A DNA stretch of 64,000 nucleotides, from the NCBI GenBank assembly GCA_938045545.1, contig CALIBN010000006.1:1-64000 (forward strand), read 5' to 3'. Both the position numbers and the translations under genes were made by a program. Of the stretch, positions 28,950-44,118 are shown in pieces; position 1 is the first letter of the stretch; every line of letters starts with the position of its first letter. This DNA is from an uncultured archaeon. Lineage in GTDB: Archaea > Thermoproteota > EX4484-205 > JAAOZP01. Under the pieces are notes generated by a model, which saw nothing but the letters and a program-made list of their open reading frames with translations, was not told the origin of the DNA and searched no databases.

Positions 28950-30083
28950 TTGAGAGCCTGGCTCTGCATGGTTAAGACGGATCCTCACGATCATCACCTA
29001 TATAGGATTAGGCTTGGCGAGCTGAGGGAGCTGAGTATTGCAGCCGGCTACAGCGTTGCCGGTTCTACGATACAGGTTAGCCCAAAGGAGAATGTTGCAT
29101 TCATGCTTGGGAGAGGCAAGCTGGAGGAGGTGAAGCAGCAGGCTGCTGAAAACAGTGTTGAAAGCGTAATCTTCTACAACGTGTTGACCAGTAAGCAAAA
29201 GTATAATCTTGAAAAGACACTGGGCTTGGAAGTGCTGGACAGGTATGACTTGACGCTCAAGATTTTCGAGATTTCATCTTCAGATAGGCTTTCCAAGCTT
29301 CAGATAAGGCTTGCCAGGCTTTTGAAGGAAATACCATACAGGAAGCTGTTGGCATCCATAAGGTTTAAGACTGGGAGGGAGCACCCGGGCCCCAGGAGCC
29401 TGGGAGAGTATGCTTACCACGAGACTGTTGCAAGCCTTTTGAAAAGGAGGTCGATGATTCAGGCGGAGATTGAGAAGAGGAGGCTTGAAAAGCTTTCCCA
29501 GCTTAAAAGAAGGAGGGAGATGGGCGTGCCTACGGTTTGCATAACCGGCTACTATAATGCTGGGAAAACAACGCTCTTCAACTCTCTCACAAACCTCAGT
29601 AAACCTGTCAGCCCAAGACCGTTCACAACGCTAACCAGCAAGTACTACCTGCTCCCCCACAGGAAGCTTGAAATTTTCCTGGTTGACACGATAGGGTTTG
29701 TTTTAGACCTGGATCCCAGGCTGATCGCATCCTTCAGCCTAACGCTTGACGACATAAGGCTCTCAGACCTTGTAATTCTCACCGTGGATGTAAGCGATCC
29801 TTCAGACCTTCTGCTCCTAAGGATTAAGACTTGCCTGGACGTCCTTAAAAGCCTGAGTGTTGAGGATAAGAGGCTACTGGTTGTTTTCAACAAGTGTGAC
29901 CTTGCAGCGGGCAGCGAAGAGGTAAAGTTGAAGATTGACCGCGCGTACCCTATTATCCACAACCTGCCTTACTGCCTGGTTTCCGCAAGGCTGCGTGAAG
30001 GCTTGGATGAGCTCATGAATCTAGTAGCATCCCTGCTCGACAATATTGCGGAGCCCGTTTTACAGAGAAACATATTCAACTAG
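28950..30083 (+). CDS. hflX: GTPase HflX
   Basis: GRGKLEE, VLDRYDLTLKIF, G1 GYYNAGKTT, PFTTL, DTIGF, NKCD. Confidence 0.9.
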   Translation: MRAWLCMVKTDPHDHHLYRIRLGELRELSIAAGYSVAGSTIQVSPKENVAFMLGRGKLEEVKQQAAENSVESVIFYNVLTSKQKYNLEKTLGLEVLDRYDLTLKIFEISSSDRLSKLQIRLARLLKEIPYRKLLASIRFKTGREHPGPRSLGEYAYHETVASLLKRRSMIQAEIEKRRLEKLSQLKRRREMGVPTVCITGYYNAGKTTLFNSLTNLSKPVSPRPFTTLTSKYYLLPHRKLEIFLVDTIGFVLDLDPRLIASFSLTLDDIRLSDLVILTVDVSDPSDLLLLRIKTCLDVLKSLSVEDKRLLVVFNKCDLAAGSEEVKLKIDRAYPIIHNLPYCLVSARLREGLDELMNLVASLLDNIAEPVLQRNIFN

Positions 30084-32856
30084 CCTTTCAACAGCTCTTT
30101 CAGCCTCTCGTTTAACTGCATTAAATCCTCCTCTAATTCGCTGCTAAGCGTTAGATACGCTTCCTCAGTGATCCCGCCGGATTCCCTCAAGTGTTGCAGT
30201 CTCTTAAGTTTCCTCATTATCGCTCCTCTTCTCCCCCTAATCTTCTTAACCTGGATGAGCACTTCGGGCGAGGGGCCTCCAAACCTGTGTCTCCTGAAGA
30301 ACGGCTTCTTAACCAGCTCCAGCAGGATGAAGTATGAAACTAGGATTATTGCGACTATAGCTAGGAGATAGGCTGAGGGTGCTGTAAATTTGAAGGCTTC
30401 GCCGACAGGAGAATAGACTATGAAGATCACCGCTAGGAAGACTATTTCAGTCGTACCGACCAGCCAGCCGCTCGGCTTAGAGCGGTAGAAAGGCAGGTGG
30501 GTCCTTATTGAAAAAGTCACGAACATTTCTGAAAGCACTGATTCTAGAAACCATCCTGTTCTGAAAAGCATCTGGAAGATTTCTGAGTTCAGATCGTAGT
30601 GGAGTTGCAGGAGTATTCTGAGCGCCTGCATCGTTAGAAGGTCGAACATTGTGCTTATTAGGCCGAAGAACATCATTGCTTCTGAAAGGAACCTTATGTT
30701 CCATCTTTTCGGCGACTTTAAATACTCTTTGTCAACATTATCCGTTGAAATCATCAGAAGTGGGGCGTCTGAAAGGAGGTTTAGGAGAAGAACCTGTGTC
30801 GGGAGGAGTGGGATAAAGGGGAGGAGAACGGATGCGAAAGCTACGGTAAGCATGTTTCCAAAGTTCGCGCTCAACGTGTTCAGAACATACTTTATGGTGT
30901 TGCCGAATATTCTCCTTCCCTCGATTACACCGTTCGCTATCACGCCGAGCCTTTTTTGAAGCAGGATGATGTCGGCGGCATCCTTAGCCACGTCCACAGC
31001 AGTATCGACCGATATGCCTACGTCTGAAACCCTTAGCGCAGGTGCGTCGTTCACCCCGTCCCCCAGAAATCCAACCACGTGGCCGTTTTCTCTCAGCGCC
31101 TTTATTATCTCAACCTTCTGTTCAGGCGTGACGCGTGCGAAAACATTATGTTTTTCAACAACCTCTTTCAACTGTTCCCCGTCCATCCCCTCAAGCTCGC
31201 TTCCAGTAATCACCCTTCCCCCCTCTATTGGGAGTCCCACCGACCTGCAGACTTCTGCAGTGACATTCGGATCGTCGCCGCTTACAATCTTAAGGTTGAT
31301 CCTCAGTCTCCTGAACGCGGTCATCGCCTTGATAGCGTCTTTCTTCGGAGGGTCCAGAAACGTTATGAAACCCATGAAAGTTAAGCCGTTTTCATCCTCC
31401 GGGGAAAACTTCTTACCGGATTCCACTTCTTCCTCAGAAAGCTCCTTTACCCCTATGCCTATAACCCTGTAGCCGGACCTACTCCAGCTTGAGCATATTT
31501 CTTTAAGATTCTCCTCCAGGCTTGAAATCGGCTCGTTAGACTCAGAAACATGCACGTCTTTACACGCCGAAATAACCGACTCAGGCGCCCCCTTGCAGAC
31601 TAAAAGGTATTTCCCATCCTTCTCAACCACCACGCTCATCCTCCTTCTTGAAAAGTCGAATGGAATTAGCTGTATCCGCTTATACGCCGCAACCCTGCCG
31701 TGTCCAAACTTTCTAAGAACATAGTTGTAGATCGCTGAATCTATGGGGTTTCCTACTGCTTTCCCTCTTTGAACCGTGACGTCGCACGCTACTGCTGCAA
31801 GCTCGACGACTGTTTCAGAAGGCCTGTTGTCGACAGTAAAATAGTTTTCAACAGTAATCACGTTCTCGGTTAGGGTACCTGTTTTGTCAGTACATAAAAC
31901 ATCCATATTGCCGATGTCCTCGATGGATTCCAGCCTCTTCACTATGACCTTCTTCCTAGCCATTTTTAGAGAACCCATTGAAAGGCTTACTGTTATTACG
32001 AATGGAAGCGCCTCAGGGGTTATTCCCACTGCAAGAGCCAGCGCGAAAAGCAAAGAGTCTATCAACGGCCTCTGGAGGAGTGCGTTCGCTGCGAAGACGA
32101 ATCCCGTCATCACCGCGACTATTTCCACCAGGAACCTGCTGAACCTTGAAATGCTTCTGGAGAATTCTGTTTCGCCCGTTTCCTCAGCAAGGTATTTCAC
32201 AGCCCTTCCGAAGAATGTCTGCTTCCCAGTTGAGACGACTATACCTGTTGCTGCGCCGGAGATAACGCTGGTGCCCATGAAGACAAAGTTGGAAAGCTCT
32301 TGGGGAACGGGTTTAGCCTTAATCGGGTTGAAGTTTTTTCAACAGGCAATGACTCTCCTGTTAAAGTCGACTCGTTTGTAGTGAAGTTTTCACACGATAT
32401 TAGTCTTATGTCCGCCGGAACTATGTCGCCGACTGTAAGCTCTACAATATCCCCTGGTACGAGTTGAGACGAATCTATCACCATTTTCTTACCGTCTCTT
32501 ACAACCTTTACGCTATACCTGACGTATCTCCTTAATTTTTCAAGGGCTTTTCCAGATCTTCTTTCCAATACGAATCCGATTAGAGAGTTTACAATTACTA
32601 TGATGAGGATTATAATGGCGTCCGTCAGCTCCCCTGCGAACGCTGCGATGAGGGTTGCGAAAATCAATATGTAGACTAGGGGGCTTCTAAACTGGGAGAT
32701 GAATAGAAAAAGGGAGGATAATCTTTTACTGGTAGCAGCCTCGTTTAAACCGTACTCCCTAAGTCTACGGTCCGCCTCATCCCTACTGAGCCCTTGGGGA
32801 GTGGTCTTTAACTCTTCGAAAACCTGTTCAGGGGGGAGCTCCCATATGTTTCTCAT
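30080..32856 (-). CDS. mgtA: Mg2+-translocating P-type ATPase (P3B/MgtA-like), frameshifted near 32325-32340
   Basis: YGLNE, LTGES, PEALP, DKTGT, KGAPE, GDGVND, SANFGN, FRTGWFLES. One extra base in the A6 or C3 run joins ORFs 32239-32856 and 30080-32278. Confidence 0.88.
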
Positions 32857-34823: not shown

Positions 34824-36005
34824 CTATATTGTAAAGCCGAGAAGCAGGAACTTTGCGGCAGCGTACGCGCCTACGAAAAGTATAGCTTTAACCCATTGGA
34901 ACTCATGAACAACCCTGAGCGATATGGCAAAAAGGAGGAACTGCCATATTGATATGGCTATGATTAGAACCTGAACTATCGGGCTAATCTTCTCGTTTAT
35001 AAGGTTGACTAAAGGCCGCGGGTCAGGGCTTTGCGCCACCTCCGTGTAGAAGCTTGAAGAAATCTCGTAGCTTTCCACCTTCATACGCGCATCGTAGACA
35101 TTCAAAGTCACGGTGTACGGTATGGACATGTTTTCTTGAACCGGTGAGACATAGGTGTTGTTCAGGAGCAGGGTTAAGTCAACAGTGAACCTCTTAACGC
35201 AATCCCCTGTGCAGTAGTCTCCGCTGTCAAAAACGTTTTTCATTATCAATGGAGTGTCATAGTTTATACTTGTACCGTTTAACCAAATGCGTTTCATGGT
35301 CTTATTAATTCCCGATAAGGTTACCGCAGCATAAGTAATATTGATTTCTCCTTCAACTATTCTAGTGGTCCCTATTATCGCGCCGGTGCTACTAATCGTA
35401 GCGTTTAACGGGATGTCATAGTAACCTCTGACCCTTATTGTTAAATTGGACTCTTCCCCAACGTAATCCCTTAAACCTATGACTATGTTATCCTCATACT
35501 GTCCTCTCGCAGGATAGCCTACGAGTGTGAGAACCCCTGTTGGAACCGCTGGCGTAGACAGGATCAGTAAAATGATAATCACAAGGCCCAAGACATTGGG
35601 GAAGTGCACATAGCCTGTTACAGAAATGCCCTGTTTAAAGTTTCCATATCCGCCTATAAGTCTTCCGCTCGAGAAAATAAGCAGTAACAGAAGTATGCCG
35701 AACAAGACTATAATTATGTATTGCATCAACCGGAATTGAATAAGACTGTTTACGAAAGAATCTATCTGCCCCGTGTAGAAAGCTGCCGGAATATCCATTT
35801 TCACCCTATAGAAAACATAGTATTGAGCAAAAGTTAATATCACGAGGATCGGCGGGATGACCGCCATTGGAAGAACGCTGGGCGAATCCTTGACTCGGAG
35901 AAACGCTTCCTTCGGATTTATGATTACTAGCAGAATTTGCCTCAGAAAACGACGTGGGGCTGGCGCCTCTTCCTCCTCCTTCAAACCCTCTTGCTCAACA
36001 GACAA
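34824..36005 (-). CDS. Yip1-family membrane protein with large glycosylated extracellular insert (TTG start at 36005)
   Basis: IINPKEAF, GYGNFKQ..VTGYVHFP, final helices WQFLLFAISLRVVHEFQWVKA. Seven N-x-S/T sequons in the insert. Confidence 0.7.
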   Translation of the reverse strand: MSVEQEGLKEEEEAPAPRRFLRQILLVIINPKEAFLRVKDSPSVLPMAVIPPILVILTFAQYYVFYRVKMDIPAAFYTGQIDSFVNSLIQFRLMQYIIIVLFGILLLLLIFSSGRLIGGYGNFKQGISVTGYVHFPNVLGLVIIILLILSTPAVPTGVLTLVGYPARGQYEDNIVIGLRDYVGEESNLTIRVRGYYDIPLNATISSTGAIIGTTRIVEGEINITYAAVTLSGINKTMKRIWLNGTSINYDTPLIMKNVFDSGDYCTGDCVKRFTVDLTLLLNNTYVSPVQENMSIPYTVTLNVYDARMKVESYEISSSFYTEVAQSPDPRPLVNLINEKISPIVQVLIIAISIWQFLLFAISLRVVHEFQWVKAILFVGAYAAAKFLLLGFTI

Positions 36006-36117
36006 TTTTGACGGTTCTTCACCGCGGCCATTATTAAACTTTTTAGACGCAGGGTTGCTGGAGCCAGAAAGTAAGCTTCTCGAAAAGTTTATTTGAAAAC
36101 TAGCGTAGAAAAACTGT

Positions 36118-37473
36118 GTGTCAGCGCCTAGTCGCCAAAATAGTGTCGATTGGATTTTCAAGTATTACTCTCAACCGAGGGTCATAGAGGATCTTTTAGA
36201 TTATGGTAGAAACAGGTGGATAGCTGTCGAAGGCAACTCCAAGGGAAGAGTCTTCATAAGGCATGGTAGAGACGGCTCGCCCCTTAGATTCGAGGATTCA
36301 AGCAGCGTAATCAGGCTGCTTAAAGAATTCTGGTTTGTTAAGCCTAGGTCTTTCTACGGCTCGGCTAACAAATACGGTAGGCTTTCGGCGAACGAGGACT
36401 TAGAGGATGTCTCCAACATTCTCCGTTCGACTCCAACCTGGGATGTTGACAACAGCGTTGAAAAGTGGCGCGAAACCCTGGCTGTTTGCAGGCTGATAGT
36501 TGAAACGCTTGAGAAGGAGAACGTTGTGAAGTCAGTGTATCTCAAGTGGAGTGGGAGAGGGTGTCATGTGCATGTTTCTGAAGAAGCTTTTTCCAGGGAG
36601 TTTCTTAAAAAGCATCATCCTCTTGACGCTGCTTTCGCGGTAGTCGAGTACGTCACCAGGATTGTTAAGCCTAGGCTTAATGCTCTAGCTGCCGGCGCCA
36701 AGGTTGAGAACAAGATGGATTTGAAACGGGTTTTCACGCTTCCGCTCTCGCTCCACAGGAAGCTGGACTCCGCATGCGTCTGCTTCAAACCCGATGAGAT
36801 CAACGTCTTTGATCTCTCATGGGTGGACCCTAGAAACTTTAAGCATAAACCCGCCTACAAGGATTTTGAAGCGGGAGAGGCAGACGGGCTTGCTGAAAAA
36901 GCTTTATCTTCCGTCGGAGGGTATTTCAAAAGGGTGGCTCCGATGTCTTCCAGCAGAGTTGGCAGCAGGAAGGATGAGGCACCTAGGCTTGGAAGGTTCC
37001 AGGTTATGGCGTTGCTGCAGGCTGCCCGATGCTTCCTTTTAACCGGGGACATTGAGAAATCCAAGTCTTTCGGTTTAAACAGGGCAATATTCTACGCTTG
37101 GGCTAAGCATAGAGGGGTTGAGGCAAAGAAGCCTCCTGGCGGAAGAGGAGTTGTAAAGCATGAAAAACGGGTGGGGGAGGTGAATATGTTCTATTTGGGG
37201 AACGAGGCGGCCTACTTGTCTGACGACGGGTGGCTTACAATAGGTGACGCTAAGCAGACTCCGCAGGACTATGATGCCCAGATAGCCAAGAGGATAAACA
37301 GCGTCATTCCCTATGAGGAGGCTTGGAGGAGAGCCCTTGAATACATTGGAAGATTCCCGCGAGAGACTCTGCTTGACCAACAGAAGTTTTTCAACCAGGT
37401 TTACAAGCCTGTGAGAGACTCGTTTATCGAAACAGTCTACAGAAGGGAAACCGGCTCAGGAAGCAGCGTTTAG
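36118..37473 (+). CDS. AEP (PriS-like primase/primase-polymerase) domain fused to an uncharacterised helical C-terminal domain
   Basis: Motif I WDVD (D109, D111); motif II SGRGCHVH; motif III region D201..RVFTLPLSLH. C-terminal RFQVMALLQAAR..SFGLNRAIFYAWAK domain. Confidence 0.78.
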   Translation: MSAPSRQNSVDWIFKYYSQPRVIEDLLDYGRNRWIAVEGNSKGRVFIRHGRDGSPLRFEDSSSVIRLLKEFWFVKPRSFYGSANKYGRLSANEDLEDVSNILRSTPTWDVDNSVEKWRETLAVCRLIVETLEKENVVKSVYLKWSGRGCHVHVSEEAFSREFLKKHHPLDAAFAVVEYVTRIVKPRLNALAAGAKVENKMDLKRVFTLPLSLHRKLDSACVCFKPDEINVFDLSWVDPRNFKHKPAYKDFEAGEADGLAEKALSSVGGYFKRVAPMSSSRVGSRKDEAPRLGRFQVMALLQAARCFLLTGDIEKSKSFGLNRAIFYAWAKHRGVEAKKPPGGRGVVKHEKRVGEVNMFYLGNEAAYLSDDGWLTIGDAKQTPQDYDAQIAKRINSVIPYEEAWRRALEYIGRFPRETLLDQQKFFNQVYKPVRDSFIETVYRRETGSGSSV

Positions 37474-38986: not shown

Positions 38987-39613
38987 GTGAGGATTGAGCC
39001 TAGGAAAACTGTGGAAATAGACGTTTTAGAGGAAGACCTGTTCGTCGGAGAAGGTTCAACCATCAAGGCGAAGACAGGTGAAATGATCATTGTGAAAGGA
39101 GTTGTGGAGTTTGAGGGGGATTGTAATATCCTTTCCAGCTTACGTGCTTCCGGCCTCCGCCTCAAAGACGAGGGGAGGATTAAAGTTCAGGGCGACCTTA
39201 TCGTAGAGGGGTCCATCGACCTCGAGGACGGGGAGCTGTGGGTAAGCGGGAGGCTTGAGGCTCAAGACGTGGACGTCGGAAAGATGGTCAAGGTGGGCAA
39301 GGGCCTGAGATGCTCGGAAATAAGCGTCGGAGGAGCTTTAGAAGCCATGGGCAACGTAGAAGCTGAGAGAATAGATGTGGGGGGAAGGGCCTCTATTCAA
39401 GGAAACGTGAAGGGACGTGACCTCAACGTAGGGGGAGCCCTAACCGTTAAGGGTTTAACGGAGCTTGAAAGCCTTGACGTGGGCGGCATGGCGAGGATCA
39501 GCGGCGGGAGAATACTCAATATAAGCGTCGGAGGATCCTTCGAGTCGACCGGAAAACTGTCCTTCGAGGAGTTGGATGTTGGAGGAGTTGCGAAGTTAAA
39601 GGCGGTGGGTTGA
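38987..39613 (+). CDS. Beta-helix repeat protein (bactofilin / YhbE-F-like polymer-forming protein), N-terminal part
   Basis: About 17-aa repeats with [IL]xVGG cores (ISVGG, IDVGG, LNVGG, LDVGG). Confidence 0.7.
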   Translation: MRIEPRKTVEIDVLEEDLFVGEGSTIKAKTGEMIIVKGVVEFEGDCNILSSLRASGLRLKDEGRIKVQGDLIVEGSIDLEDGELWVSGRLEAQDVDVGKMVKVGKGLRCSEISVGGALEAMGNVEAERIDVGGRASIQGNVKGRDLNVGGALTVKGLTELESLDVGGMARISGGRILNISVGGSFESTGKLSFEELDVGGVAKLKAVG

Positions 39614-39614
39614 G

Positions 39615-40217
39615 ATGGAAATAAAGGGTTCTCGCATTTCGGTGGGCGGTAGTCTAAGGGTTGAGGGGGACGCGGAGATCGACGAAGTAGAGGTAGGAGG
39701 GACAATCAAGGTTGAGGGTTTCATAAAGGCGAAGAGGATTGAGGTTGGAGGAGCGCTAAGTGTTGATGGGAATGCCTCCGTGGAAAACAGGCTGGAGGTG
39801 GGCGGGGTAGCGAAGGTGAGCGGGGAGCTGAAAGCCGGCATAGTCGAAGTGGGCGGCGCTTTGAAGGCTGACGTCCTTTTCGCTGAGGTCGCGAAAGTCG
39901 GCGGGAGGGTTGAGACCAGAAGGGGCTCAAGGGTCAGGACGTTCGAAATAGGGAAGAAGGGGGAGGTTATAGGCCCGATCGTCGCGGAGAACGTCAAAAT
40001 AGGCCGTAAGGCGAGCGTTGAGGACATCTACGCCGACCGGCTTGAACTCGGAGAAGATTCTTCCGCCCGCAACGTCTACGCGAGGGAAGCATATTTGAGA
40101 GAGGGATGCGAGGTCACGGGGGAGCTCCTTTACGTCGATAAGCTGGAATTGGGGAGAAACGTCAAAACGTATTCCGAGCCTCGAAAGGTGGAGAAGCTGC
40201 CCGAGCCCTCCACTTAG
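39615..40217 (+). CDS. Beta-helix repeat protein, C-terminal part (probably the same gene as 38987-39613)
   Basis: Repeats continue (ISVGG, VEVGG, IEVGG, LEVGG, VEVGG, AKVGG). Deleting one T at 39610/39611 gives a single 409-aa ORF. Confidence 0.7.
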   Translation: MEIKGSRISVGGSLRVEGDAEIDEVEVGGTIKVEGFIKAKRIEVGGALSVDGNASVENRLEVGGVAKVSGELKAGIVEVGGALKADVLFAEVAKVGGRVETRRGSRVRTFEIGKKGEVIGPIVAENVKIGRKASVEDIYADRLELGEDSSARNVYAREAYLREGCEVTGELLYVDKLELGRNVKTYSEPRKVEKLPEPST

Positions 40218-40255
40218 AGCCCCCTATAGTTACAACTAGAATATGGTGGAAACGC

Positions 40256-40516
40256 ATGGGCAGGCCCAAGAGGCATAGGCTCCAACTGTATGCGGATATC
40301 CTCAGGGTCCTGAGGGTCTATGAGGGGGGCTGCGGGATAACGAGGCTATCGTACGGGGCCAACATGCCCCTGGACAGGGCTAAGAGGCTCGTTGGAGAGC
40401 TGATTTCTCACGGTTTGATAGGTAGAAGGACCGATGACCCGAGAATATTCGTCTTAACAACCAGGGGAATGGAATTCCTGAATGCCTTCGACAAGCTTGC
40501 AATGTTCCTCGAATAA
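40256..40516 (+). CDS. Archaeal winged helix-turn-helix transcriptional regulator (HTH_45-like)
   Basis: RHRLQLYADIL, ITRLSYGANM, FVLTTRGMEFL. Confidence 0.82.
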   Translation: MGRPKRHRLQLYADILRVLRVYEGGCGITRLSYGANMPLDRAKRLVGELISHGLIGRRTDDPRIFVLTTRGMEFLNAFDKLAMFLE

Positions 40517-43260: not shown

Positions 43261-44118
43261 TTGGAGAAGCCTCGCGTAAGGCAAGTATCAGCCTTAATTC
43301 CGAGTTTTCTAGCATGCAAAATCGCCGGGCAACTAACGGCTAAACCGGGTTTCGAGCAGGCGCCAGTAACCAGCAAGTATGAAGCAATAAGAGGAAGGTT
43401 AAGAGGTAAGACTGTGATAATATACCGTTCCGGCAGTATTGTCTACGACGAGGCTCTTAAAGAAGTCAGAAGCATGCTTGAGGAGGCCCTTTACGACTAC
43501 TATAAGGCTGCCGGCATCCTCATTGGATCGGATGAGGCGGGTAAAGGAGAGGCCCTCGGGCCCCTTGTTATTGCCGCAGTTGCGTTAACACCAAGGCAGG
43601 CAGCGTATCTCCAATCAATAGGTGTTGCAGACAGTAAGATTATTCCTGAGAACAGGATTCTGGAACTTGCAAAAAGTATTAAACGGTTTTCACTCGGCTA
43701 TAGCATTTTGAGAATTCCTCCGTTTAAGCTTAACGAAATGTTTAGGGCAAAGGAGAAGCACGGTAACTTGAACGATATACTTGCAAAAGCACACTGTAAA
43801 GTTTTAAAGTCTGTTCTTTCAAAGATCTCTGAGAAGCCTTCTCAAATAATAATTGACAAATTTGATTCCAGTAAAACTAATAGGCGGACAAAGATTATTG
43901 AGAACGCTCTCAACGGTTTAAGGGTCCAGGCGATTGAAAAAGGAGAGGTTTTCCCAGCGGTGGCAGCGGCAAGCATACTGGCTAGGAGCAGCTACTTAAA
44001 ATGGATAAGTAGAAAACTCGATGTGGAGACGCTGAGAAGAGTTAAGGAGGGAGAGTATAGTGCTGTCGGAGCTAAGGAAAGCCTTCCACAATATTTCAAG
44101 ATGTGCTATTTAAAGTGA
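43261..44118 (+). CDS. rnhC: Ribonuclease HIII (TBP-like N-domain plus RNase H type 2 domain)
   Basis: N-terminal YEAIRGRLRGKTVIIYRSGSIVY; IGSDEAGKGE..GPLV, GVADSK, IIIDKF, EKGE..AVAAASILAR (DEDE set). Confidence 0.78.
   Translation: MEKPRVRQVSALIPSFLACKIAGQLTAKPGFEQAPVTSKYEAIRGRLRGKTVIIYRSGSIVYDEALKEVRSMLEEALYDYYKAAGILIGSDEAGKGEALGPLVIAAVALTPRQAAYLQSIGVADSKIIPENRILELAKSIKRFSLGYSILRIPPFKLNEMFRAKEKHGNLNDILAKAHCKVLKSVLSKISEKPSQIIIDKFDSSKTNRRTKIIENALNGLRVQAIEKGEVFPAVAAASILARSSYLKWISRKLDVETLRRVKEGEYSAVGAKESLPQYFKMCYLK

Follow-up and report, generated by a model that had tools for sequence, protein, structure and literature searches.

In pRN1 ORF904, an archaeo-eukaryotic primase (AEP) made as a single chain, the accessory domain is a PriCT-1 helix bundle and is needed for initiation, and in human PrimPol the accessory domain is a UL52-type zinc finger. 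PolpTN2 is likewise described as a single-chain AEP with a tethered helical accessory domain (PMC3973330), the accessory domain of NEQ395 is reported to be needed for initiation (PMC10250227), and the same has been described for tethered accessory domains in single-chain AEPs (PMC5934617) and for the PriCT, PriX and PriL modules of AEPs (PMC5862659). The usual description gives archaea a single primase, PriSL, to which translesion synthesis and the repair of breaks are attributed as well (PMC12019639). Here we describe a gene encoding an AEP with a C-terminal domain for which no relative of known fold could be detected, located in a 64,000-nucleotide stretch of DNA (the window; positions 1 to 64,000 of contig CALIBN010000006.1, assembly GCA_938045545.1) from an uncultured archaeon of the phylum Thermoproteota. 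Its product is built like NEQ395, PolpTN2, pRN1 ORF904 and human PrimPol, with a small accessory domain tethered by a linker to the AEP of the same chain. Unlike the NEQ395-type monomeric primases, the family to which it belongs does not provide the primase of the genome.

We propose, with moderate confidence, that the gene encodes a second, non-replicative AEP for DNA repair, repriming or restart. Such an enzyme would be a template-dependent nucleotidyltransferase for genome maintenance and not for bulk replication, repriming or filling gaps at damaged or stalled DNA, with DNA or RNA strands made or extended on a DNA template. The tethered C-terminal domain would hold the template, the DNA end or the initiating nucleotide beside the active site, in a role analogous to that of the PriL C-terminal domain, PriX, the PriCT helix bundles and the UL52-type zinc fingers. 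The modelled architecture, in which a disordered linker joins the catalytic domain to a compact one, supports this proposal. An earlier note on the window, made from its letters and translations, had described a stand-alone, non-canonical chromosomal Prim-Pol; the AEP fold (in a predicted model), the non-canonical status (given a separate PriSL) and the novelty of the C-terminal domain have all stood up to the analysis reported here.

Conservation and catalytic motifs of the N-terminal domain

The open reading frame (ORF) encodes 451 amino acids, begins with GTG and ends with a stop codon at 37471-37473 (Table 1). A total of 583 proteins matched its product at E<=0.001 out of 8000 scored, nearly all of them 437-488 amino acids long with a query coverage of 94-100 %. 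Conservation was assessed in an alignment of 32 sequences with 46-86 % identity to the window protein, to which the statements below on invariant residues and net charge of the fused protein refer. Thirteen residues of the AEP motifs (W108, D109, D111, S145, G146, G148, H150, E197, N198, D201, K203, R204 and H213) are invariant in 32/32 sequences, and about 30 further positions are invariant in the C-terminal domain. These motifs and this degree of conservation are far beyond chance and the gene is real and constrained; judging from the invariant residues, the AEP active site is under strong purifying selection. The sequence features named in the earlier note were all found in the translation, namely the three AEP motifs (WDVD at 108-111, SGRGCH at 145-150 and ENKMDLKRVFTLPLSLH at 197-213), the Ser/Arg-rich linker VAPMSSSRVGSRKDEAPRL at 273-291, with a predicted local distance difference test score (pLDDT) below 50 at 274-287, and the C-terminal strings GRFQVMALLQAAR, SFGLNRAIFYAWAK, QTPQDY and FFNQVYKPVRD.

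An AlphaFold2 model of the window protein built from a 32-row alignment (mean pLDDT 85.9) is unambiguous in giving the N-terminal domain the AEP fold, with the motifs intact, as the earlier note had supposed. Sequence searches with the single protein returned very little: there were 0 Pfam families and 0 matches to PDB sequences at E<=10, and the sole NCBIfam match was to TIGR00335 (PriS) over residues 127-158 (E 0.083, 12.3 bits against a cut-off of 143.5). Some relatives have sub-threshold matches to PF01896 or PF21686, one of them reaching 17.7 bits against the PF21686 cut-off of 27.4. In public annotations the proteins appear as 'hypothetical protein', in one JGI record as 'DNA primase catalytic subunit', and under the automatic cluster name 'DNA primase family protein'. 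Alignment with hhalign to four canonical PriS proteins matched motif III alone (E 0.0011; TxDxxRLxRxPxSLH in PriS), placing D201 opposite PriS D286 and R204 opposite R289; as read from this alignment and the invariant residues, either E197 or D201 may be the third metal ligand.

The domain differs from canonical PriS (PF01896, TIGR00335; PDB 1zt2, 1v33) in falling far below the family cut-offs, in having no PriL partner gene and in the absence of the Cys4 zinc knuckle. The canonical PriS of the same genome holds its zinc cysteines at C119/C122/C133/C136, four cysteines that are invariant among the canonical PriS proteins of this genome and three others. No such knuckle was found between motifs I and II in the 32-sequence alignment, where C222 is the sole invariant cysteine, and the spacing from the DxD of motif I to the histidine of motif II is 41 amino acids in the window family against 86 in the PriS of the same genome.

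Structural comparison with VIA-align gave its best scores to LigD-Pol/Prim-PolC structures, possibly because the core of the window protein is minimal and zinc-less. These structures comprise the Prim-PolC and LigD polymerase domains (PDB 6sa0/5op0, 2fao, 2iru) and the Methanocella non-homologous end joining (NHEJ) polymerase (5dmu), a dedicated NHEJ-type archaeal AEP structure in the search. Their scores bring in a different explanation, that the protein is a pure gap-filling or end-joining polymerase of the LigD-Pol/Prim-PolC type, incapable of de novo priming, whose C-terminal domain recruits a partner (ligase, PCNA, RPA or nuclease) or grips a downstream 5′ end. We consider this possible but rather unlikely. 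The higher Z scores may merely reflect the extra inserted subdomains of PriS, and identity to these structures is just 13-15 %. The window protein carries an additional C-terminal domain of roughly 155 amino acids that is absent from the Prim-PolC and LigD polymerases and, unlike LigD, its gene shows neither ligase fusion nor regular ligase adjacency, the adjacency that does occur being confined to one lineage. PF21686 found no match in the window protein at E<=10 and none in the genome at E<=1, and Ku (PF02735) was not found in this genome, which is 92 % complete.

A separate canonical primase in the same genome

The genome (2.03 Mb in 51 contigs) encodes a canonical primase on contig C30, where adjacent genes match PF01896 (E 6.3e-19) and PF04104 (E 1.3e-17) above the cut-offs. 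The canonical priS/priL pair that the earlier note wished to see confirmed elsewhere in the genome is thus present, and the window protein is not its sole PriS. This PriL-PriS operon lies on another contig; the window gene is not the replicative primase. Five further genomes holding the family were tested, and in 5/5 a gene away from the family member matches PF01896 above the cut-off. Among them are two small nanoarchaeal genomes (G001 and G002, 0.6-0.8 Mb) in which a PF01896-positive gene of 462-463 amino acids and the window family occupy separate places. The order PriL, PriS and a third ORF (176-200 amino acids) seen in the canonical operon is repeated in three other genomes (L083-L085).

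The same evidence bears on the idea of an alternative or back-up replicative primase of the monomeric NEQ395/PolpTN2 kind, in which the C-terminal domain would substitute for PriL. A single chain joining an AEP with a helical accessory domain is indeed the arrangement described for NEQ395 (PMC10250227) and PolpTN2 (PMC3973330), the protein is well conserved, with 46-50 % identity between phyla, and the family has been retained in the small nanoarchaeal genomes. A back-up primase is nevertheless very improbable in our view, as a canonical PriS accompanies the family in every genome tested (its own and 5/5 others), the AEP domain was not found in the majority of sampled genomes of the phylum (see below), the C-terminal domain has no Fe-S cysteines and no detected likeness to PriL, and the gene does not lie beside replication genes.

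A sister subfamily paired with a RadA-paralogue ATPase

The genome also holds a paralogue of the window gene on contig C29 (locus L092), an AEP of 291 amino acids consisting of the N-terminal domain only and 39-41 % identical to the AEP domain of the window protein. The start of its gene overlaps the stop of an ATPase gene whose product belongs to TIGR03881 (371 bits against a cut-off of 247.8) and matches SSO2452 (PDB 2w0m) at E 2.6e-103. SSO2452 is a RadA paralogue that is described as binding single-stranded DNA (ssDNA) more tightly than RadA and as inhibiting D-loop formation (PMC8708640). The pairing is conserved: in loci sampled from the phylum the AEP lies directly downstream of the ATPase in 28/30, one of the two misses falling at a contig end, with 75-100 % identity among the ATPases and 45-100 % among the AEPs.

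This sister subfamily has the same AEP motifs as the window protein, and both are encoded in one genome. It differs in its length of about 290 amino acids, in the lack of the C-terminal domain and in its coupling to the ATPase, whereas the fused gene has no such neighbour, a KaiC-like ATPase of a different type occurring once among its 49 close same-strand neighbours. The earlier description of the window gene as stand-alone therefore holds in the sense that it has no conserved neighbours, but has to be qualified in that the same genome contains an AEP paralogue in an operon with an SSO2452-type ATPase. The ATPase pairing is the best available hint of recombination-linked DNA transactions for the wider family.

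The C-terminal domain

The linker and the C-terminal domain are both basic. The linker (residues 273-291) has a mean net charge of +3.0, and the hairpin that follows (residues 292-332) has a net charge of +4 to +8 in 32/32 sequences and invariant residues that include G292, R293, F294, Q301-R304 and K316-A323. Proteins consisting of the C-terminal domain alone carry a mean net charge of +10. As read from the sequences, this basic charge fits nucleic-acid binding.

Modelling of residues 288-451 on their own, using 27 stand-alone homologues, gave a confident alpha/beta structure (pLDDT 89.1, predicted template modelling score 0.85). It combines a beta-meander of four to five strands and five helices with a helical hairpin and a variable loop that is disordered. 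Foldseek, a tool of limited power for this purpose as were the other searches, placed the model at E 1.1 at best against the PDB and 0.51 against BFVD. A profile of the domain reached at best E 0.38 and 0.73 against PDB sequences, which we take as noise, and another family profile (A1) gave 0 matches. Pfam had no match in the C-terminal part of 26 representatives, and a search of the ESM Atlas with the domain alone gave no usable match. The sequence lacks Fe-S cysteines. The earlier note had called the domain uncharacterised, and no relative of known fold or family was detected by Foldseek, Pfam, the PDB profile search or hhalign against PriL. A prediction of the complex between the N-terminal domain (1-272) and the C-terminal domain returned an interface score (ipSAE) of 0.00 in two runs without controls, which speaks neither for nor against binding. 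A putative PIP-box at Q421-K-F-F-N-Q-V-Y428 was considered and rejected, since the segment packs well as a helix (pLDDT about 93) and its invariant residues are core-like, unlike those of a disordered tail.

We tentatively suggest, as a speculative extension of the proposal, that the C-terminal domain is a new nucleic-acid-handling or primer-initiation factor of an unseen fold, active both in fusion with the AEP and on its own as a small basic protein. If so, archaeal DNA synthesis could rely on an accessory factor that has gone unrecognised and may also serve the canonical primase or another polymerase, and the fused gene would be a 'Rosetta stone' revealing its class of partner. With its confident model, lack of a structural relative and widespread free form, the domain lends itself to structure determination and to the search for a new primase/polymerase accessory function.

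Distribution and architectures of the family

The closest relative of the window protein (95 % identity) comes from a metagenome-assembled genome of Candidatus Brockarchaeota. Records with full-length homologues are assigned to Korarchaeota-type Thermoproteota, Methanomethylicia, Nezhaarchaeota/Nezhaarchaeales, Bathyarchaeia, Thermofilaceae and Desulfurococcales, and also to Asgard archaea (Odin-, Baldr- and Njordarchaeota, Asgardarchaeum) and nanoarchaea (Nanoarchaeota YN1, Nanopusillus). A profile search of 1.84 billion representatives returned 393 proteins at E<=0.001, with no protein longer than 504 amino acids among the best 150 of the 393 matches, and 397 homologue loci were confirmed, of which 80 were kept for the analysis of gene context. 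We found no publication on the family or on its C-terminal domain in the open-access literature and bioRxiv, and a study of Asgard primases covers canonical PriS/PriL only (PMC12770985). The locus had been put forward as the best candidate in the window for an undescribed system; it is not a one-off but belongs to a large new family of the known AEP superfamily that is widely conserved among archaea.

The domains are found in four forms. Besides the fused form of about 440-510 amino acids there are proteins with the N-terminal domain only (about 280-310), proteins in which the N-terminal domain carries a different extension of about 130 amino acids, and proteins of about 150-190 amino acids with the C-terminal domain only, which begin right at the GRFQVM motif and form a family of 1,894 clusters at E<=0.001. 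Both domains thus occur as separate genes as well, which settles the question of unfused versions raised in the earlier note. In one genome (G088) the split domains are far apart, at 443.8 kb and 247.2 kb on one contig. By eye the stand-alone C-terminal domains fall into two sequence types, one with '...FYAWAK' as in the fused form and one with '...FYAAAKRGF' (L093-L098, L100, L103, L104, L112, L116, L118, L120; P0200-P0389). The AEPs with the helical extension of about 130 amino acids, which does not match the C-domain profile, include L122:1486-2685 (+) from G088 and P0133, P0135 and P0146, and this third architecture was found in genomes that encode the C-terminal domain as a separate, distant gene. 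In flanks of 1.5 kb around 13 stand-alone C-domain loci, neither an AEP nor a shared partner was found; a gene resembling adenylate kinase, recognised by eye from its translation, lies beside the stand-alone domain in 3 loci of one family only.

Within the phylum of the window, 301 genomes were sampled and the AEP domain was found in 120 and the C-terminal domain in 95, with an uneven presence by family (0/43 in f5, 17/18 in f18, 8/8 in f28). Of 151 genomes sampled from the Asgard phylum 38 matched, ten with the fused form (one cut by a contig end) and 8 with an N-type protein with or without a separate gene for the C-terminal domain. A quick maximum-likelihood tree of 51 N-terminal domains separated the architectures to a large extent: three labels need 5 changes against 20.4 when shuffled, 22/24 N-only proteins fall in one weakly supported group (SH-aLRT 83), and fused and N-only forms stand mostly apart. 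The analysis points to a family with two ancient forms, of which the first is coupled to a RadA paralogue and the second is fused to a new domain. If Thermoproteota, Asgard archaea and a few nanoarchaea share such a second chromosomal AEP family, an enzyme that has so far gone unstudied would join those of archaeal genome maintenance. Its members come from lineages that include thermophiles and may also be of use as compact primase-polymerases.

Reverse gyrase (TIGR01054) exceeded the cut-off in 180/301 genomes of the phylum; the genome of the window, which holds the family, has a match below the cut-off (E 9e-49), and seven genomes of its own genus have TIGR01054 matches at E<=1e-215. There are families in which all genomes match TIGR01054 at E<=1e-20 and none has the AEP, for example f25 (10/10 against 0/10). 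Tallies at this threshold were made per family, may include weaker matches, which we take as other topoisomerases, and carry no conclusion on hyperthermophily.

Several observations weigh against a role in repair, repriming or restart, or against the part given in it to the C-terminal domain. The AEP fold leaves the substrate undefined, and the link to repair comes from the paralogue and not from the window gene. When 854 ORFs from the 80 loci and the window were clustered, no neighbour was conserved beyond roughly the 10 closest relatives, and the 49 same-strand neighbours within 130 nucleotides are heterogeneous in their Pfam content, so that gene context across the 80 loci is uninformative. 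The AEP domain was not found in 181/301 sampled genomes of the phylum (about 60 %) and would therefore be dispensable in most lineages, and in the nanoarchaeal phylum the sole match among 101 genomes was the centre genome itself. A role purely in cis is opposed by the stand-alone C-terminal domain in 20 of the 38 matching Asgard genomes, where no AEP of the family was found, and by family f26, where the C-terminal domain is present in 2/3 genomes and the AEP in 0/3; the domain thus does not need this AEP. Being encoded alone in many genomes, it is probably able to function in trans and possibly has further partners, and its presence in AEP-less genomes argues for partners beyond this enzyme. 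Finally, hhalign gave the C-terminal domain a probability of 0.1 % of matching PriL; as no likeness to PriL or to a solved accessory module was detected, the analogy with such modules draws on architecture and charge.

Some of these points would also suit a nucleotidyltransferase with a task other than DNA replication or repair, for instance RNA 3′-end extension or RNA-templated or oligonucleotide signal synthesis, with the basic C-terminal domain binding RNA. Fold and motifs indicate metal-dependent nucleotidyl transfer only, the C-terminal domain is basic and occurs without this AEP, hence with a role of its own, and DNA-repair neighbours are not conserved. We nonetheless hold this to be improbable: all the characterised structural neighbours listed use DNA templates, the sister subfamily pairs with a RadA paralogue described as binding ssDNA (PMC8708640), and PADLOC returned 0 matches. 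A second, non-replicative AEP acting on DNA remains the explanation that we prefer.

Table 1 Features of the two-domain gene and of the two related operons in the same genome. Domain and motif labels are assignments from translation, alignment and model
Feature	Sequence	Position	Strand	Basis
Whole two-domain gene	window	36118..37473	+	ORF list; homologues 437-488 aa, 46-95 % identity
Minimal zinc-less AEP (primase-polymerase) catalytic domain, residues 1-272	window	36118..36933	+	
Motif I, W108-D109-V110-D111 (metal-binding DxD)	window	36439..36450	+	translation; W108, D109, D111 invariant 32/32
Motif II, S145-G146-R147-G148-C149-H150 (SGxGxH, nucleotide binding)	window	36550..36567	+	translation; S145, G146, G148, H150 invariant
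Motif III region, E197 N198 .. D201. K203 R204 VFT.PLSLH213 = ENKMDLKRVFTLPLSLH, residues 197-213	window	36706..36756	+	translation, invariant residues, hhalign
Flexible Ser/Arg-rich linker VAPMSSSRVGSRKDEAPRL, residues 273-291	window	36934..36990	+	pLDDT <50 at 274-287; length and sequence variable
Basic helical hairpin GRFQVMALLQAAR ... KSFGLNRAIFYAWAK, residues 292-332, strongly conserved	window	36991..37113	+	helices 293-309, 312-332
Variable basic loop, residues 333-353	window	37114..37176	+	pLDDT <50; alignment variable; mean net charge +3.2
Beta-meander and five helices, residues 354-446, rest of C-domain	window	37177..37455	+	
SSO2452/RadC1-type RadA-paralogue ATPase, 277 aa (operon, L092)	contig C29	2304..3137	-	
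AEP paralogue, 291 aa (operon, L092)	contig C29	1432..2307	-	
PriL, 342 aa (canonical primase operon, L001)	contig C30	2387..3415	-	
PriS, 376 aa (canonical primase operon, L001)	contig C30	1297..2427	-	
196-aa ORF (canonical primase operon, L001)	contig C30	783..1373	-	

Gene neighbourhood

The 5′ end of the gene shares 44 bases with the listed TTG start of a divergent ORF encoding a Yip1-domain protein (34824..36161, -). Eleven neighbouring ORFs were scanned between 28950 and 44118; they encode an HflX-type GTPase, ribulose-phosphate epimerase, an ATP-grasp protein, the Yip1-domain protein, a major facilitator superfamily transporter, two bactofilin-like proteins, a winged helix-turn-helix protein, an iron-containing alcohol dehydrogenase, an amidohydrolase and RNase HII. 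As had been noted earlier, none of them is a priL, helicase, Ku, ligase, cas or integrase gene. Across the 80 loci the sole recurrence with a flavour of repair is an ATP-dependent DNA ligase, directly downstream of the AEP gene in 2/80 and within the locus in 6/80. In two Nezhaarchaeota/Nezhaarchaeales records a ligase of 571-576 amino acids lies 34-65 nucleotides downstream of the fused AEP on the same strand (L033:7451-9163 (+) and L040:7432-9159 (+)).

The gene is chromosomal and not mobile or defence-like. The patchy distribution of the family, and the description of many non-replicative prokaryotic AEPs as encoded by mobile elements (PMC5862659), might suggest that the gene is left over from a mobile element or carried by one, or that it belongs to a defence system, for instance as a CRISPR- or plasmid-associated Prim-Pol. 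This is the least credible of the explanations and we regard it as highly improbable. The neighbours are housekeeping genes with no integrase among the 11 ORFs scanned, the GC content is flat (0.498 at the gene against 0.42-0.53 across the window) and the genome has one fused copy. The window protein, unlike what would be expected of mobile-element or defence AEPs (CAPP, PrimPol-PV1 and similar), has no match to a defence or phage model (PADLOC 0, PHROGs 0), and 0/43 pattern matches from 2.9 million viral contigs were confirmed.

Other features of the surrounding sequence were noted in passing. A P-type cation ATPase, recognised from its translation only, spans 30080-32856 (-) as two overlapping ORFs (32239..32856, 205 amino acids; 30080..32278, 732 amino acids); the gene may be split or frameshifted, or its sequence may contain an error. 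The bactofilin-like genes (208 and 200 amino acids, the first below the Pfam cut-off) stand in tandem and are followed by the gene for the winged-helix protein of 86 amino acids, together occupying 38987-40516 (+). The RNase HII-domain protein (285 amino acids, 43261-44118, +) carries an N-terminal extension of about 87 amino acids, the Pfam domain beginning at residue 88.

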